32,000 bases of DNA from Candidatus Iainarchaeum sp. (GTDB lineage: Archaea > Iainarchaeota > Iainarchaeia > Iainarchaeales > JACQJH01): the NCBI GenBank assembly GCA_016205145.1, contig JACQJH010000001.1, positions 330,001 to 362,000 on the forward strand, given 5' to 3'. The stretch's first letter is position 1. Every line of letters starts with the position of its first letter. The position numbers and the translations under genes were made by a program. The notes below the pieces were generated by a model. That model did not search any database. It was given only the letters and a program-made list of their open reading frames with translations, and was not told the DNA's origin. Shown one piece after another: positions 3,295 through 31,221 of the stretch.

Positions 3295-4053
3295 TCACGA
3301 GAACATCGGCGTCTGCACTGTCTTGTCCTCAAGCTTTTTTATTTCATCGCCCGTTTTTTTCATTGCGCCAAGGTGCGAGAGCAAAGCCTTCTCCGTTTCC
3401 TTCGCCTCCTTGAGCAGGGGAGCGATGTCAAGCCCCAGTCCGGACATTTCGTCAAGCTTTTTCAGCAATACCGCGGCAGCCTTGTAGTCCGCGGAAATCT
3501 GGACCCTGCCGAGAAGTGAGACTGCCTGGATGTCCTTGTCCATCAGATCAAGCATTATGAGCGCATTCACGCCGGTCGTGATGCCCTCGTTTATGATTTC
3601 AACGCCGTTTTTTTCCAGGAAATCCTTTGCCCTGGCATTCGAGGCTATGCCGTAGATTTTTTCCTTTTCCTCTTCCTCGGTCTTTATGCCGGCAAGGGAA
3701 ACCACTCTTTCAATGCCCTTGCCCTCGATCCAGTCCACGAGTTCCCTGGCAAAAATCCAGACAAGGTTCTGCGGAATGAGCTGCTCTGCAATGATCACTG
3801 CAAGCTTTTTCCTGTCGTTGACGTAAAGCCTCGACGGGTGCACGGGCCTGCCGCCGTGAATCCTGATGATCGGAACGAACGCGTTGGAATCCACGAACCC
3901 GATCTGCTCGAAATCAAGCTTTTCGACAAGGTATTTCGCGGCAATCGTGCCGACAAGGCCCATGCCGGGAAAGCCCTCAATGAGTGTATAACCTGAAAGG
4001 TTATGCTCGCCTTTTTCAACAAATTCAACCCAATACTTTTTCGATTCAGCCAA
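3295..4053 (-). CDS. PAC2-family proteasome assembly chaperone-like protein (COG1938)
   Basis: The N-terminal LIEGFPGMGLVGTIAAKYLVEKL... pattern and ~250-aa length are typical of archaeal PAC2 proteins. The start is TTG at 4053, because an in-frame stop lies 2 codons upstream. Confidence 0.75.
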   Translation of the reverse strand: MAESKKYWVEFVEKGEHNLSGYTLIEGFPGMGLVGTIAAKYLVEKLDFEQIGFVDSNAFVPIIRIHGGRPVHPSRLYVNDRKKLAVIIAEQLIPQNLVWIFARELVDWIEGKGIERVVSLAGIKTEEEEKEKIYGIASNARAKDFLEKNGVEIINEGITTGVNALIMLDLMDKDIQAVSLLGRVQISADYKAAAVLLKKLDEMSGLGLDIAPLLKEAKETEKALLSHLGAMKKTGDEIKKLEDKTVQTPMFS

Positions 4054-23219: not shown

Positions 23220-23936
23220 CTACTTTTGTTTGCCCTGCCAGTCCTTTCTTGCTTTCTCAAGTCTCGCAAGGTTGTCTGTCGGCAGCCATTGGCCCTGGCA
23301 AAGAACCCCGAACAGCTTTCCTTTCGCGGCGATTTTCGGGAACGCGTCGCGCTCGATGCTCGACTTTCCGTCCGGCAGGTAATTGAAAATCTCCGGGCCG
23401 AGGATGTAGAGGCCGGCGCTAACGGTTGCGTTTTTTGTCACGGCATTTTTTTCGTCAAAGCTCGTTATCCTGCCGCCTTCAAGCCTCACTGCGCCGAATT
23501 CCGAGGCATCATGGATTTCCTTTAGTGCGAGCGTTGCAACCGCCCCTTCGGCGAAATGCGTTTTGAGAATCGGTTCCGGATTGAAGTCTTTAAGCTCGTC
23601 GCCGTTCATCATCAGGAAATCCGAATCGAAAAAGCCTTGCGCGAGCTTCAGCGCCCCGCCCGTGCCAAAGAATTCTTTTTCAACGCTGTAAACGATTTTC
23701 ACGCCGAATTTTTTTCCCGTGCCGAAATAATCGCGGATTTTTTCATGCAGGTGCCCGACGCCCAAAACGACTTCTTTTGCGCCGAACCTTTTCGCGAGTT
23801 CAACGTTGTATTCGAGGATTGGTTTGCCTTTCACTTCGACCATGACCTTGGGCGTGTCCTTGGTCAAAGGCATGAGCCGTTCGCCTTTTCCCCCCGCAAG
23901 AATGAATGCCTTTCCGATTTTTTTTGCCGCATGCAT
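23220..23936 (-). CDS. Sugar-1-phosphate nucleotidyltransferase (G1P-NT/RmlA-like short form)
   Basis: KAFILAGGKGERLMPLTKDTPKVMVEVKGKPILEY matches the canonical GGxGxRLxPLT..xPK signature. The body is NTP_transferase-like. Its ATG overlaps the GT4 stop (TAATG). Confidence 0.8.
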   Translation of the reverse strand: MHAAKKIGKAFILAGGKGERLMPLTKDTPKVMVEVKGKPILEYNVELAKRFGAKEVVLGVGHLHEKIRDYFGTGKKFGVKIVYSVEKEFFGTGGALKLAQGFFDSDFLMMNGDELKDFNPEPILKTHFAEGAVATLALKEIHDASEFGAVRLEGGRITSFDEKNAVTKNATVSAGLYILGPEIFNYLPDGKSSIERDAFPKIAAKGKLFGVLCQGQWLPTDNLARLEKARKDWQGKQK

Positions 23937-26519: not shown

Positions 26520-26546
26520 TTGCCCTCACCCAAAACTTAATATTGC

Positions 26547-27050
26547 ATGGTGCGCTATTTTTTCCATATGCGAAGCGAAGGCGGTTCTGCAGGAAGGCGC
26601 GGGCCGGGGCCTGCGGGAGAACAAGGCCGTGAAAGGAATGTTCTTTTTCCGGGCTTGCGCAGGTGGCTCCGCAATTTCCGTGGCAGGAAGGCACAGGTTG
26701 ACCGGCTGGTCGACCTGCTTCAAAACAGGCAGGCCGGCAGGGCGGCCTTTTTTGATGACTTTGCGGGAGTTTTCCGCCGTTTGGAGGGGCGTTCCGGCCA
26801 GGCTTTCAAATTCACCCGGCTTTTGCGCGATCACGAGATTTTCGGCTGTGTTGCGCCTGACGGAAAGAGGCTGATAGTTTTTCCGGACGGGGAATTCACA
26901 AATGCGGAAATGAACGGCTTGGCGGCAGAACTTGCGGCAGTATCCGGGGAAGAAAATTTGCAAGCCGACATAAGGTTTACGACCGTTTCGCGCCTGAAAC
27001 GCAAAATCGCGGGCGACTTGAGGGCATGGGAGCGCCATTTGCTCGGCTGA
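26547..27050 (+). CDS. Hypothetical protein (orphan; start uncertain)
   Basis: The C-terminal two-thirds look protein-like (VDRLVDLLQNRQAGRAAFFDDFAGVFRRLEG...LIVFPDGEFTNAEMNGLAAELAAV...). The N-terminal ~45 codons are Gly/Arg-rich and GC-rich. A T7 run follows the stop. No family was recognised. Confidence 0.35.
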   Translation: MVRYFFHMRSEGGSAGRRGPGPAGEQGRERNVLFPGLRRWLRNFRGRKAQVDRLVDLLQNRQAGRAAFFDDFAGVFRRLEGRSGQAFKFTRLLRDHEIFGCVAPDGKRLIVFPDGEFTNAEMNGLAAELAAVSGEENLQADIRFTTVSRLKRKIAGDLRAWERHLLG

Positions 27051-27059
27051 CCATTTTTT

Positions 27060-27872
27060 TCAAAGCAGTATTTCCGCTTTCCTTAAGTCCTCGCGCGAGT
27101 TCACGTTCAGGTAGACGCCCTGGAAAGGGTAGCCGAACAGCAGCCGTTTTTCCGCAAGCTTGGGAAACAAATCCCGCTCGATGTTCTCCATGTTCCTTGA
27201 AACGTATTTGAAGATTTCCGGCTCGAAAATGAAGTAGCCTGCGTTGACGAGATAGCTTTGCACGTTTTTTGTCGGCTTCTGCACGAAGTCGACTATGTTG
27301 TTTCCTTCAAGCGTCGCAACCCCGTACTTTTTCGGGTTGCTCACTGTTGTGAGGGCAACGGTTGCGATCGCCTTGTTCTTTCGGTGGAACGAAAGCATGT
27401 CGTTGAGGTTGATTGAGGTTATGGTGTCGCCGTATGCCACCAGAAAAGTGTCCTTCAGCCTTGCCTTTGCCTTGAGCAAAGGGCTTATGGTTCCGGTCGG
27501 CCTGTCGCCTTCGATGAAGTCCACTGCGTAAGGCGGGCTTTTCGCCCTGATGCCTGAAATGATTTCCTCGGCATTGCTGTCAACGTAGACCAGGAAATTG
27601 TTGACGTTGAATTCGTGGATGGAGTCCATTACCGTCTGGAGCAGGGCCTTGTCGTTTATTTTTTCGAGGAATTTCGGCCTGCCGTTCCACAGCAGTTCGC
27701 TTTTCCTTCCGCCCGCGAGCACAAGCGCCTGGCTGAGCCTGAAGTCGGAGAGGATCTTGCTTAGAAGGCTTTCCATTGCCTGGCTCCGGCTCCTGATGCT
27801 TGTGCCGTCCACAAGCCTGTCGACCTGCTCAAGCAGGTCCTTCTTGATAGTTATGGTCGCCCTGACTCTCAT
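27060..27872 (-). CDS. Fusion of an N-terminal ribbon-helix-helix (CopG/NikR-like) DNA-binding domain with a sugar-phosphate nucleotidyltransferase-like domain
   Basis: Residues 1-45, MRVRATITIKKDLLEQVDRLVDGTSIRSRSQAMESLLSKIL, give the classic RHH beta-alpha-alpha pattern. The rest is NTP_transferase-like (VAYGDTITSINLNDMLSFHRKNKAIATVALT...KKYGVATLEGNNIVDFVQKP...LVNAGYFIFEPEIF). The P-loop-like signature is a variant, LAGGRKSEL. Confidence 0.7.
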   Translation of the reverse strand: MRVRATITIKKDLLEQVDRLVDGTSIRSRSQAMESLLSKILSDFRLSQALVLAGGRKSELLWNGRPKFLEKINDKALLQTVMDSIHEFNVNNFLVYVDSNAEEIISGIRAKSPPYAVDFIEGDRPTGTISPLLKAKARLKDTFLVAYGDTITSINLNDMLSFHRKNKAIATVALTTVSNPKKYGVATLEGNNIVDFVQKPTKNVQSYLVNAGYFIFEPEIFKYVSRNMENIERDLFPKLAEKRLLFGYPFQGVYLNVNSREDLRKAEILL

Positions 27873-27990
27873 GCCATCAAGCCCCAGAAATATTTGATGC
27901 TGACTCGGCGGCCTGCGTCAGCAGGCTGCCTTGGTTCCGGACCAGCCGGACGGAAGCGGCTGACGGCGGTTGGTGCGGTTTTCGCCTTTT

Positions 27991-28026
27991 TCATATTGTA
28001 TCATATATCATATGAGCCAATCATAC
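27991..28026. promoter_or_regulatory. Cluster of four TCATA(T/C) repeats upstream of ugd (candidate operator)
   Basis: TCATAT occurs at 27991, 28001 and 28008, and TCATAC at 28021. The cluster lies just upstream of TATA-like CTTTTAATGG (28026-28035) and GTTTATAT (28055-28062) and of the ugd ATG at 28081. It sits in the divergent intergenic region shared with the RHH-fusion gene. Confidence 0.35.
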
Positions 28027-28080
28027 TTTTAATGGTTTGCCGGGCACATTATTGTTTATATTCCTTGCGTTGCCTGTTTT

Positions 28081-29406
28081 ATGAAAAAGGTGTGTTGTTT
28101 GGCGAATGTGAAGAACGTGTGCGTTGTGGGAACGGGTTACGTCGGTTTGGTTGCGGGCGCCTGCTTCGCCGACATGGGCCACAACGTAACGTGCGTCGAC
28201 ATAGACGAGAGGAAGATTTCGATGCTCAGGGCCGGCAAAATCCCGATTTTCGAGCCGGGCCTCGGGGAACTTGTCAGGAGAAATTCCGCCAACGGGAGGC
28301 TTTCGTTCACGACAAGCCTGCCTGAAGCGGTCGGCAAATGCGCCATCATTTTCATTGCCGTCGGCACGCCTCCCAAGGAGGATGGCACCGCCGACCTGTC
28401 TTTCGTGCGCGCGGTTGCGAAGGAAATAGCCTTGTCAGCGAAGGAGCCGAAAATCGTGGTTGAAAAGTCCACGGTTCCGGTTGAAACCGGCGAGATGGTC
28501 CTTGAAATCCTGGCCGCGAACTCGCACGGCAATGTTTCGTTCGAGGTCGTTTCCAACCCGGAATTTTTGCGCGAGGGCTCCGCTGTCGGCGATTTCATGA
28601 AGCCCGACAGGATTGTCGTTGGCACGGATTCTGAGCATGCGCGGAAGGAGCTGGGGGAATTGTACGCTCCGCTCAAGGCAAAAATCCTGTTCACCGACAT
28701 AAAGAGCGCGGAAATAATCAAGCATGCCGCCAACTCGTTCCTTGCCACGAAGATTTCGTTCATCAATTCGGTTGCAATGCTTTCCGAGGCCGTCGGCGCC
28801 GACATAAAGCTTATCGCGGAAGGCGTCGGCCTGGACAGCCGCATCGGCCCCAAGTTCCTGAACGCGGGCATAGGCTACGGGGGCAGCTGTTTTCCAAAGG
28901 ACGTTTCGGCGTTCATCCAGATAGCGGACAGGCATGGCGTAAATTTTTCAATACTCAAGGAAGTGGAAAACGTAAACAAGGGGCTGAGGCCGCTTTTCGT
29001 CGGGAAAATCGAAAAGGCGGTCGGAGGGGTCAAGGGCAAAAAAATAGCTGTCTTGGGCCTTGCCTTCAAGCCGGACACTGATGACATGCGCGAGGCCCCG
29101 AGCGTGGACATAATCAGCGCTCTCGCTGAAAAGGGCGCCAGGGTTTTTGCATTCGATCCAGAGGCGGAAGAGCGCGCAAAAAGCCTTATAAGTTCCGGCA
29201 ATGTTTCGTATTGCGGCAACGAGTTTGACGCGATTCAGGATGCGGACGCGCTTGTAATCCTTACGGAATGGCCGCAGTTTGCAAAACTCGACCTGGCCAG
29301 GGTCAAGTCTGCCTTGAAATCGCCGGTAGTGATTGATGGCAGGAACATCTTCGAAAAGGCGGAGATGGCAAGGCGCGGTTTCACTTACGTTTCAATCGGA
29401 AGGTAA
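28081..29406 (+). CDS. ugd: UDP-glucose 6-dehydrogenase
   Basis: VCVVGTGYVGLV, FIAVGTP, EKSTVPV, NPEFLREG, GIGYGGSCFPKD (catalytic Cys) and LGLAFKPDTDDMREAP are all canonical. A GTG at 28108 (MKNVCVVGTGYVG) is an alternative start. Confidence 0.92.
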   Translation: MKKVCCLANVKNVCVVGTGYVGLVAGACFADMGHNVTCVDIDERKISMLRAGKIPIFEPGLGELVRRNSANGRLSFTTSLPEAVGKCAIIFIAVGTPPKEDGTADLSFVRAVAKEIALSAKEPKIVVEKSTVPVETGEMVLEILAANSHGNVSFEVVSNPEFLREGSAVGDFMKPDRIVVGTDSEHARKELGELYAPLKAKILFTDIKSAEIIKHAANSFLATKISFINSVAMLSEAVGADIKLIAEGVGLDSRIGPKFLNAGIGYGGSCFPKDVSAFIQIADRHGVNFSILKEVENVNKGLRPLFVGKIEKAVGGVKGKKIAVLGLAFKPDTDDMREAPSVDIISALAEKGARVFAFDPEAEERAKSLISSGNVSYCGNEFDAIQDADALVILTEWPQFAKLDLARVKSALKSPVVIDGRNIFEKAEMARRGFTYVSIGR

Positions 29407-29412
29407 ATTCCA

Positions 29413-30270
29413 ATGCCTGTGAAAAAAGCCGTCATTCTCGCAGCCGGCCTGGGTTCGAGGCTTTTGCCCGCCACAAAGGCTGTTTCAAAGCCCCTTCTCC
29501 CGGTTGTCGACAAGCCGGGCATACAATACCTTGTCGAGGAACTCGCGGAAGCCGGAATCAAAGACATCTGCGTTGTCGTCAACAAGGGCGAAGCGCAGGT
29601 GCAGCAGCATTTCGCGAAGAATCCGCGCCTCAACAAACTGCTTGAAAGCGCGGGCAAGCATGACTGCGTGAAGGATTTTGAGCGCATTGAATCGCTCGCT
29701 CGCCTCGTTTTCGTGGAACAGCCCAAACCTTCCGGTCCCGGGGACGCGGTCCTGCTTGCAAAACATTTTGTCGGCGGAGACGCGTTTGTCCTGCTTTATT
29801 CAGACGACGTTGTCCTCTCAAGGGTTTCCGCGACAAGACAGCTCATTCGCGCGTTTGAAAAGTGCAACGCGAGCGTCGTGGCCGTTTCAAAAGTGCCGCG
29901 TGAAGAAGTGGTGCATTTCGGCGTCGTGAAAACATCTTCCCCGGAAAGGCTGTCACGCGTCGAAAAAATCGTTGAAAAGCCCAAGCTGTCGGACGCGCCC
30001 TCCGACCTCGCGGTTGTGGGCAGGTATCTGCTCACGCCGGAAGTGATCGGCATACTTGAAAAAACGCCTCTTGCGGGAAAAGAGCTTTTCGTGACCGACG
30101 CCCTTGAGTCGCTTGCCTCCGCCAAAAAGCTTTTTGCTTTGGAGCTTGACGGCAAATGGCTGACCACCGGAAAAAAACTCGATTATGTCAAGACAGTCGT
30201 CGAGTTCGCCCTATTGCGCGAGGACATCGGGCCGGAGTTCAGGGCTTACCTTAAAAAATTGCTTGAATGA
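29413..30270 (+). CDS. galU: UTP--glucose-1-phosphate uridylyltransferase
   Basis: KAVILAAGLGSRLLPATKAVSKPLLPVVDKPGIQYLVEE, EQPKPSGPGDAV, VEKPK and VVGRYLLTPE match the family. The gene starts 7 nt after ugd. Confidence 0.88.
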   Translation: MPVKKAVILAAGLGSRLLPATKAVSKPLLPVVDKPGIQYLVEELAEAGIKDICVVVNKGEAQVQQHFAKNPRLNKLLESAGKHDCVKDFERIESLARLVFVEQPKPSGPGDAVLLAKHFVGGDAFVLLYSDDVVLSRVSATRQLIRAFEKCNASVVAVSKVPREEVVHFGVVKTSSPERLSRVEKIVEKPKLSDAPSDLAVVGRYLLTPEVIGILEKTPLAGKELFVTDALESLASAKKLFALELDGKWLTTGKKLDYVKTVVEFALLREDIGPEFRAYLKKLLE

Positions 30271-30288
30271 TTTTTTTGTGGTCGGTCT

Positions 30289-31221
30289 GTGATGGAATCT
30301 GTTGTTGTAACGGGCGGTTCGGGCTTCATCGGTTCGCATCTCTGCGACCTTCTGCTTGGAAAAGGCCACAGGGTTTTCTGCGCCGACAATTTCTGCACGG
30401 GGCAGAAAAAAAACGTGGCGCACCTTCTGGAGAACAGGAATTTTTCCCTGATTGAGCACGACATTGCAGTGCCACTGCGCCTTGATGAAAAAATCGGCAA
30501 GGTTTTCAATCTCGCCTCGCCTGCATCGCCCGCGGATTTCGAAAAAATTCCCTTTGAAATCATCCGCACGAACACGGATGGCGTGAGGAACATGCTTGAG
30601 TTCGCGAAAAAAAACAACGCGGTTTTCCTTCAGGCATCGACTTCCGAGGTTTATGGGGAGCCGCTGGAGCACCCGCAGAGGGAATCCTACAACGGCAATG
30701 TTTCAATGCTGGGCGAAAGGGCGTGCTATGACGAGTCCAAGCGCCTTGCCGAAACCATTGTCAGCCTTTACCGCAGGAAACATGGAGTGGACGCGAAAAT
30801 CATCCGCATTTTCAACACTTACGGGCCGCGCATGAGGGAAAACGACGGCCGCGTCATACCGAATTTCATTCCAAGCGCCCTCGCGGGAAAACCCATAACG
30901 GTTTACGGCAACGGCTCGCAGACAAGGTCGTTCTGCTATGTTTCGGATCTGGTTGCAGGCATTCATGCCATGATGGATTCCAAGGCGCCCGGGCCCGTCA
31001 ATCTCGGCAACCCGCAGGAAATAACCGTCAAGGCGCTTGCGGAAAAAATTGTTGCGCTCACCGGCTCGAAATCGAGGATAGTTTTCAAACCGCTTCCGCA
31101 GGACGACCCCACAAGGCGGAAGCCCGACATTTCCCTTGCGAAAAAAGCGCTGGGCTGGGAACCGAAAGTTTCATTGGACGATGGCCTGAAAAAAACCATT
31201 GATTATTTTGCGGGCAGGTGA
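30289..31221 (+). CDS. uxs: UDP-glucuronate decarboxylase (UDP-xylose synthase), SDR family
   Basis: VTGGSGFIGSHLCD, DNFCTGQKKNV, ASTSEVYGEPLEHPQRESY, YDESKR, IFNTYGPRM..NDGRVIPNF, GNGSQTRSFCYVSDLV and PQDDPTRRKPDISLAKK.LGWEPKV give a very close UXS pattern. Confidence 0.9.
   Translation: MMESVVVTGGSGFIGSHLCDLLLGKGHRVFCADNFCTGQKKNVAHLLENRNFSLIEHDIAVPLRLDEKIGKVFNLASPASPADFEKIPFEIIRTNTDGVRNMLEFAKKNNAVFLQASTSEVYGEPLEHPQRESYNGNVSMLGERACYDESKRLAETIVSLYRRKHGVDAKIIRIFNTYGPRMRENDGRVIPNFIPSALAGKPITVYGNGSQTRSFCYVSDLVAGIHAMMDSKAPGPVNLGNPQEITVKALAEKIVALTGSKSRIVFKPLPQDDPTRRKPDISLAKKALGWEPKVSLDDGLKKTIDYFAGR

Follow-up and report, generated by a model that had tools for sequence, protein, structure and literature searches.

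Results

We analysed a 32,000-nucleotide (nt) stretch of the genome of Candidatus Iainarchaeum sp. (contig JACQJH010000001.1, positions 330,001 to 362,000 of the forward strand; hereafter the window), in which one gene joins an N-terminal ribbon-helix-helix (RHH) DNA-binding domain to a sugar-1-phosphate nucleotidyltransferase (NT) fold. This RHH-NT gene is an ATG-initiated open reading frame (ORF) on the minus strand (27060-27872; stop codon 27060-27062), taken from the ORF listing and the sequence, and its 270-amino acid (aa) product is identical to that quoted in the initial annotation of this DNA. The divergence from ugd, galU and uxs described there is borne out by Pfam and NCBIfam: a presumed target operon on the plus strand (28081-31221) comprises a TuaD/AglM-type ugd (28081-29406), a galU-like gene (29413-30270) matching TIGR01099 with 256 bits, and uxs (30289-31221), the product of which matches human UDP-glucuronate decarboxylase (UXS1) with E=2e-104. 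The wider neighbourhood is likewise the glycan-biosynthesis block that the initial annotation reported, with GT1, a second nucleotidyltransferase, rmlC, rmlD and a methyltransferase nearby. Judging from its domains, its conservation and its genomic setting, the RHH-NT protein very probably regulates its own locus by binding DNA there.

Conserved DNA-binding domain and decayed catalytic loop

Pfam recovers the two-part architecture proposed at the outset, with RHH_1 at residues 6-38 and NTP_transferase at residues 49-233. The RHH domain spans residues 1-45 (27738-27872, minus strand), and carries a strand of the form R4-x-T6-x-T8 and an invariant IRSRSQA motif. In a direct hmmscan of the window protein RHH_1 (PF01402) scores 18.3 bits (E=0.0022; cut-off 20.5 bits), and in a six-frame search of the genome the same protein scores 21.4 bits, above the cut-off; four other ORFs in this genome match RHH_1. 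The domain is also detected at E<0.01 in 18 of 33 aligned relatives (best E=1.5e-5). A profile of 21 N-terminal sequences searched against the PDB matched E. coli NikR (9.6e-5), Pyrococcus horikoshii NikR (0.0084) and CopG (0.098), and the strand RVTIT aligns with RVTITL of E. coli NikR both in the family profile and as a single sequence. The NikR half-site is recognised through Arg3, Thr5 and Thr7. Modelled with AlphaFold2 from the family alignment (mean predicted local distance difference test, pLDDT, 89.3), the protein has the RHH topology, with residues 1-10 extended and helices at 11-20 and 29-43, at a monomer pLDDT of 68-77 in this part; RHH domains all dimerise. Residues 1-45 are the best-conserved segment of the protein (mean 3.22 bits in an alignment of 117 sequences), and R2, R4, D18, R27-S28-R29-S30, A32, E34, L37 and K39 are invariant in the 33-sequence alignment.

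The remainder of the protein (residues 48-270; 27063-27731, minus strand) is a nucleotidyltransferase-fold domain, as first described: NTP_transferase (PF00483) matches with E=3.3e-20, and NTP_transf_3 also matches. Among curated NCBIfam models, those for archaeal GlmU-type, AglF, and CDP-/dTDP-glucose and GDP-mannose pyrophosphorylases match best, none of them coming near its equivalog cut-off. Two GDP-mannose pyrophosphorylases, human GMPPB and Arabidopsis VTC1, are the nearest solved structures by sequence (E ~1e-17) and again by Foldseek comparison of the AlphaFold2 model (template modelling score 0.72-0.75, E ~1e-19), with GMPPA also among the best matches. This fold is modelled confidently (pLDDT ~90-96), and the protein ends directly after it at residue 270, with no C-terminal left-handed beta-helix domain.

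The signature loop is degenerate. In place of GGxGTRLxPLTxxxPK, alignment with canonical paralogues places LAGGRKSELLWNGRPKF at residues 53-68 (27669-27716, minus strand), so the loop replacement noted in the initial annotation is real; the three canonical nucleotidyltransferases of the same genome have the loops GGKGERLMPLTKDTPK, AAGLGSRLLPATKAVSK and GGTGSRLRPLTLVTNK. The first of these belongs to NT2 (23220-23936, minus strand); of the paralogues without an RHH it is the one closest to the NT domain of the regulator, and it is the only other match of the regulator family profile in its own genome (161 bits). The window loop, GGRKSELLWNGRPK, is two residues short and is without the second Gly, the Arg and the PLT of the canonical signature, and alignment of the family indicates that the canonical Arg is missing from 112 of 117 members. 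In working nucleotidyltransferases the signature loop is the best-conserved part. Here residues 56-66 have the lowest conservation (mean 1.5 bits) and the loop varies in length among the 117 sequences, while the rest of the NT domain averages 2.79 bits. The retained positions include LAGG, K75, G127, YGD (D149), a TTVSNP..YG block (G184) and (E/Q)KP (K199), which, by comparison with RmlA, GlmU and GMPPB, we take to form the sugar-phosphate face of the pocket. Of these, D149 and K199 are conserved in the family, and the Glu of EKP is replaced by Q198 in the window protein. At the second metal-binding acid position (WxD) there is an invariant Asn (N256), a residue which also occurs there in GlmU. 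The catalytic residues queried in the initial annotation are thus partly kept (K67, D149, K199) and partly not, as the canonical Arg is lost and the second acid is Asn. Loop decay together with the missing Arg suggests loss of catalysis in the NT domain.

Conserved synteny with ugd

To gather loci encoding relatives, we combined seven exact-protein-sequence look-ups with a scan of GTDB species genomes, and mapped every retrieved locus by tblastn. At 32 of the 37 distinct loci with upstream sequence, the regulator is divergent from ugd or a ugd-like dehydrogenase; at two the divergent gene encodes a uxs-like epimerase/dehydratase, and three are unresolved. The intergenic region between regulator and ugd is usually 46-140 nt long. 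In relatives, the ugd operon commonly continues with a nucleotidyltransferase and uxs and, in some lineages, an archaeal FBPase, and NT2 often lies directly downstream of the regulator on the same strand.

Several relatives carry FBPase_3 (archaeal fructose-1,6-bisphosphate aldolase/phosphatase) inside the ugd-NT-uxs operon (for instance L001 3170-4288 and L007 3503-4618), which links gluconeogenesis to nucleotide-sugar supply under one promoter. At another locus (G084:C1:535066-537741; L060/L061) ugd matches in two pieces (residues 9-279 and 269-441) within one 912-aa frame, suggesting an intein or other large in-frame insertion in UDP-glucose dehydrogenase.

A putative operator between regulator and ugd

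The intergenic region of the window holds a putative operator of four hexamer half-sites (27991-28026, no strand assigned), namely TCATAT (27991-27996), TCATAT (28001-28006), ATATGA (28010-28015) and TCATAC (28021-28026), with centre-to-centre spacings of 10, 9 and 11 bp. Its core palindrome, TCATA-N5-TATGA (28001-28015, likewise without strand), occurs only once in the 1.25-Mb genome. The same architecture, TATA-(ATATGA)-TCATAy-N3-rTATGA-N4-GTATGA, was found in 32 of 37 intergenic regions of the family. The consensus of 29 non-window sites (TTTaAAtAtAtgAat..TCATAtAttGTATGAnaaaGTATGA) has a weak ATATGA half-site overlapping a TATA box, followed by the core TCATAy-N3-rTATGA and, 10 bp further on, GTATGA; at most loci the regulator's ATG, which is itself part of the last GTATGA, follows 21 nt after the start of the palindrome. 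In a 91%-identical relative the half-sites are kept and the spacers differ.

Allowing one mismatch at most, we count 32 sites in the 4,359 nt of intergenic DNA from the family, versus 16 in ~349 kb of flanking sequence; four of the exact sites in these flanks lie 21 nt upstream of a 281-aa RHH-bearing paralogue described below (L014 6307, L020 5731, L021 5805, L022 5671). A dinucleotide-preserving Markov model expects 0.15 full cores per genome, where one is observed, and 1.6 occurrences of the shorter CATA-N5-TATG. When the genome was scanned with a matrix built from 29 other genomes, leaving the window out, the top score genome-wide fell on the window site (26.3 bits); the next unrelated site scored 15.5 bits, and the training sites 24.5-42 apart from one (15.0). 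The same scan was our search for a wider regulon, which was set aside as it gave no second convincing site, and the protein looks, on this reading of the genome, like a single-locus regulator. Four genomes from the same order carry ugd and lack RHH-NT, and in none of them was such a site found within 400 nt upstream of ugd. As a separate observation, the pentamer TATGA/TCATA is over-represented in the whole genome (G000), with 1445 occurrences against ~731 expected from dinucleotide content.

The operator of E. coli NikR is GTATGA-N16-TCATAC (PMC7055735). The hexamer of the putative operator, GTATGA/TCATAC, is the NikR half-site in a different arrangement, TCATAy-N3-rTATGA with flanking copies at 9-11 bp spacing. 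The shared half-site agrees with the identical recognition strand. As NikR_C (PF08753) was found nowhere in the genome, no canonical NikR competes for the operator sites.

Promoter region and an upstream open reading frame

Abutting the operator is a TATA-like box (CTTTTAATGG, 28026-28035, no strand assigned), at the position of the family-conserved TTTAAATA box (consensus AannTTTaAAtAtAtgAat..TCATAtAttGTATGAnaaaGTATGA), and a second TATA-like box (TTTATATT, 28055-28062, plus strand) ends 18 nt before the ugd ATG and is kept in the 91% relative; both are putative promoter elements. A scan for sigma-70 promoters, which does not cover archaeal promoter types, returned no promoter-like site in the region.

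In the window and its closest relatives, DNA is inserted between the operator-embedded ATG and the regulator. The window has a putative upstream ORF of 41 codons (27869-27994, minus strand), the ATG of which lies inside the last operator half-site and the TGA of which overlaps the regulator's ATG (ATGA). It is still open in the 91% relative (L055/L056), with 37 codons and the same ATGA overlap despite 12 nt of indels, and may reflect translational coupling after insertion into a leaderless gene. The operator-proximal promoter may then still drive the regulator via this translationally coupled putative ORF; an alternative candidate promoter is a AAATATTT box at 27888-27895, though this ends only 15 nt from the ATG. 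The 123-nt GC-rich spacer that separates operator and regulator ATG was also considered as a structured leader or riboswitch, and rejected on a fold z-score of -1.16, the absence of an Rfam match and poor conservation, with indels in the 91% relative; an Rfam scan of the window yielded nothing but a tRNA.

The same slot varies elsewhere. At L012 (~3375-3990) an ORF for a 204-aa methyltransferase begins at an operator-embedded ATG and stops 5 nt short of the GTG of the regulator, and looks like a whole gene inserted between operator and regulator. At L008 a remnant 'MNRGR' start is duplicated.

Downstream of the regulator, the window holds overlapping ORFs on opposite strands at 26526-27050 (170 aa minus, 167 aa plus), neither of which matches Pfam. 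The gene called at the corresponding place in the 91% relative (157 aa) lies on the strand opposite the regulator, equivalent to the plus strand of the window, which favours the plus-strand ORF following rmlD as the real gene.

Distribution and history of the family

A homologue search returned 269 sequences. Nearly all of the best 120 are full-length, with identities of 41-91%, and the full-length relatives number more than 117. Where organisms are named they are Diapherotrites/Iainarchaeota or Aenigmarchaeota (Aenigmatarchaeota), and databases name these proteins only as nucleotidyltransferases ('sugar phosphate nucleotidyltransferase', 'NDP-sugar pyrophosphorylase'). Full-length orthologues occur in ~32-40 of 215 genomes of the phylum, concentrated in few families, and also in Aenigmatarchaeota. 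When the RHH domain alone was searched against 1.84 billion representative sequences, 31 proteins matched, and most of those checked are NT fusions. Five of the ten matches checked were of 168 aa or fewer; all five are without a complete NT domain, and three break off part-way. Among the more distant RHH proteins, P0123 (247 aa) and P0132 (218 aa) have C-terminal domains that do not score as NTP_transferase and have lost the LAGG and GD motifs; in sequence terms they show further decay of the enzyme fold.

A phylum-wide profile search identified a second full-length class of RHH fusion in several genomes, 1-3 kb from the first. This sister fusion, of 281 aa, has a canonical, NT2-like NT domain with GGKGTRLRPLT, FNGDN and EKP, and its genes (L014 6328-7173, L020 5752-6597, L021 5826-6671, L022 5692-6537) have their own operator overlapping the start codon. 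The layout is the same, TATA-palindrome-GTATGA(ATG), with the operator TCATA-N5-TATGA-N5-GTATGA. These features make the sister paralogue a candidate for a true bifunctional enzyme-repressor. In a maximum-likelihood tree of NT domains, the regulator family forms a single clade (support 100/99) with a long stem (0.71). Its sister clade unites the RHH-less NT2 enzymes with the RHH-bearing canonical paralogues, which branch basally to them; because the outgroups (GalU, RmlA-like) are themselves long branches, the root is insecure. The simplest history compatible with these sequences is that an ancestral fusion of RHH and active enzyme duplicated, that one duplicate kept catalysis and mostly lost its RHH, and that the other kept its RHH, its catalytic loop decaying several times independently. 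The ancestral fusion was probably an active enzyme, because the loop of the sister paralogue is fully canonical, and repeated decay is suggested because loop-retaining members are scattered through the clade.

Discussion

The initial annotation of the RHH-NT gene offered two readings, one of a transcription factor using a possibly inactivated NT fold as a sensor, the other of a moonlighting active enzyme. The former gains support from an RHH domain that is both the most conserved part of the protein and NikR-like, from a signature loop that is the least conserved part, from divergence from ugd at 32 of 37 loci, and from a conserved, genome-unique operator. The latter fits the sister paralogue, with its intact GGKGTRLRPLT, better than the window protein. 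On balance we favour a non-catalytic ligand-sensing role for the NT domain, and hold it probable that the protein combines local regulation with a non-catalytic NT sensor. There is perhaps an even chance that the window protein is the founding member of an uncharacterised archaeal transcription factor family, which senses a nucleotide-sugar via a dead nucleotidyltransferase domain.

We envisage a one-component regulator, in which N-terminal NikR-like RHH dimers would read GTATGA/TCATAy hexamers one helical turn apart. With a flanking half-site on each side of the core TCATAy-N3-rTATGA, several dimers may bind cooperatively along ~36 bp, and centre spacings of 9-11 bp would align as many as four dimers along the same face of the helix, from the TATA box to the regulator start. 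The region between TATA box and start codon is the classic site from which archaeal repressors block polymerase recruitment. In most relatives the operator would cover the regulator's transcription start and start codon, blocking TBP, TFB and RNA polymerase, and so effecting autorepression. The ugd-galU-uxs operon, which would supply UDP-xylose, may be controlled by the same operator, most likely through repression by occlusion of the TATA box; on this side the operator would sit just upstream of, or overlap, a shared or neighbouring TATA box, and activation is also possible. Because the fold and the residues on the sugar-phosphate side (D149, G184, K199) are kept, and the Gly-rich, Arg-containing loop is lost, we propose that the C-terminal domain is a pseudoenzyme that binds UDP-xylose, UDP-glucuronate or UDP-glucose, or a sugar-1-phosphate. 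Coupling of this binding to DNA affinity would then provide feedback control of glycan-precursor supply. We infer DNA binding by analogy with NikR, Arc, MetJ and CopG, and the conserved, genome-unique array of half-sites beside the gene speaks for it strongly if indirectly; we likewise infer its stoichiometry, the sign of regulation, the lack of catalysis, the binding of a sugar phosphate or nucleoside diphosphate (NDP)-sugar, the identity of that ligand, and feedback repression.

Several observations weigh against this proposal. The RHH_1 score of the single protein is borderline when scanned directly (18.3 versus a 20.5-bit cut-off), and the control for absence of the regulator covers only four related genomes. 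The operator of the window is 118 nt upstream of the regulator's ATG, unlike the adjacent position in most relatives, and autoregulation there consequently depends on the promoter used. In archaea, an operator upstream of the TFB-recognition element (BRE)/TATA can mean activation, and the sequence gives no sign for ugd. With respect to catalysis, five of the 117 members keep an Arg in a near-canonical loop of canonical length, for example GGKDTRMLPLTKNKPKF, and the window protein retains LAGG, K67, D149 and K199, with R56 and K57 within its loop, so that a non-canonical catalytic arrangement is conceivable.

These last points bear on a bifunctional enzyme-repressor of the BirA/NadR/RbkR type, in which the NT domain would be active, via R56/K57 or some other arrangement, and its bound state would control DNA binding. 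The retained fold, with LAGG, K67, D149 (YGD) and K199 (KP), would suit such a protein, as would a sister paralogue with the same RHH and operator and a fully canonical loop, and the minority of five in 117 with an Arg-containing loop. We nevertheless consider it unlikely for the window protein, as the loop is the least conserved segment, variable in length and without a conserved basic residue at the catalytic position, the opposite of what is found in true enzymes; further, the second metal-binding acid is the invariant N256, the family has a long stem branch, and the genome already encodes three canonical enzymes, with a galU-like one in the target operon. It is less probable still that nothing is sensed at all, and that the NT fold is an oligomerisation scaffold which places RHH dimers on the multi-site operator independently of any ligand. 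P0123 and P0132, which lost the GG and GD motifs, indicate that a nucleotide site is not needed for the fold to be maintained, and RHH regulators in general need a second interface for cooperative binding; but the (near-)invariance of G54, G55, K75, G127, D149, G184, K199 and N256, and of the TTVSNP..YG block, would be unexpected in a scaffold.

A more radical departure is that the protein does not bind DNA here, the palindrome being the site of another factor or a promoter element, and the RHH domain serving protein-protein contacts. The palindrome is AT-rich and overlaps the promoter region, and the genome contains four other RHH_1 ORFs. We regard this as very improbable, given that operator and regulator are found together in two phyla, that the operator follows the paralogue to its own promoter, that it is missing upstream of ugd where the regulator is missing, that its half-site equals that of NikR and the recognition strand is identical, and that the site is unique in the genome and adjoins the gene. 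Two further candidates were rejected. A canonical NikR is ruled out, as neither the protein nor the genome contains a NikR_C domain, and a toxin-antitoxin pairing of RHH antitoxin and nucleotidyltransferase toxin is incompatible with a sugar-nucleotidyltransferase fold, rather than a minimal or Pol-beta one, and with synteny with a metabolic operon.

The preferred reading, of a local regulator with a non-catalytic sensor, has parallels in several known systems. NikR, the nickel-responsive RHH repressor (PDB 1q5v, 2hzv, 2bj1), provides the best structural match to the RHH domain and shares the strand RVTIT and the half-site GTATGA/TCATAC. It is also alike in its logic, with an N-terminal RHH and a C-terminal domain for ligand sensing and oligomerisation, if the ligand sensing proposed here is correct. 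However, the C-terminus of NikR is the ACT-like, nickel-binding NikR_C, where the present protein has a nucleotidyltransferase fold; the two NikR sites are 16 bp apart, whereas the half-sites described here are inverted relative to those of NikR, 3-5 bp apart, and arrayed in threes or fours; and the target of NikR is metal transport, as opposed to a nucleotide-sugar operon. The RHH repressors MetJ, Arc and CopG bind tandem or inverted subsites about one helical turn apart, with several dimers cooperating, and autoregulate; the corepressor of MetJ is S-adenosylmethionine, the end-product of its pathway. They are small, single-domain proteins, whereas a 225-residue enzyme-fold domain is attached here.

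With regard to the NT domain, BirA, NadR, and the archaeal RbkR and ThiR each fuse a DNA-binding domain to a pathway enzyme, or former enzyme, domain which acts as the effector sensor, and ThiR carries a catalytically dead enzyme domain. Their DNA-binding domains are helix-turn-helix or winged-helix, joined to biotin ligase, nicotinamide mononucleotide (NMN) adenylyltransferase, riboflavin kinase and ThiN, respectively, in contrast to the RHH and NT domains found here. GMPPA is a catalytically inactive paralogue of GMPPB that senses GDP-mannose for feedback control (PMC11228364). Its structure (7d72) is among the top matches to our model, and it likewise has an NT fold without catalysis, if the loop of the present protein has been read correctly. 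GMPPA acts allosterically on GMPPB and possesses a C-terminal left-handed beta-helix, whereas our protein is without a beta-helix and its output is proposed to run through the RHH domain; by this comparison it is an analogue of GMPPA and not a member of that group. Transcription factors derived from enzymes are therefore already known as a kind, and it is the RHH-NT combination that appears to be new among them. In keeping with the initial annotation, which knew of no characterised example, none of an RHH joined to a sugar nucleotidyltransferase fold appeared in the literature searched.

Conclusions

DPANN archaea have tiny genomes with few recognisable regulators, and the control of their surface glycans is almost unstudied. 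At the present locus the sequence supplies a full regulatory unit that is open to testing, with its regulator, an operator of four sites, the target operon and a few candidate effectors. The annotation as an enzyme is probably wrong for most members of the family, and inflates the apparent capacity for nucleotide-sugar metabolism in these organisms. RHH fusions with intact and with decayed loops coexist in some genomes alongside the same type of operator, making this a clean example of a passage from enzyme to sensor; if the proposed roles are correct, a single lineage displays the path from bifunctional enzyme-repressor to pure pseudoenzyme regulator. Should the ligand prove to be a UDP-sugar, the protein might also serve as a scaffold for a nucleotide-sugar biosensor. 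More broadly, the proposed mechanism, if true, would give DPANN archaea, with their reduced genomes, a means of adjusting the supply of UDP-xylose and surface-glycan precursors by feedback.

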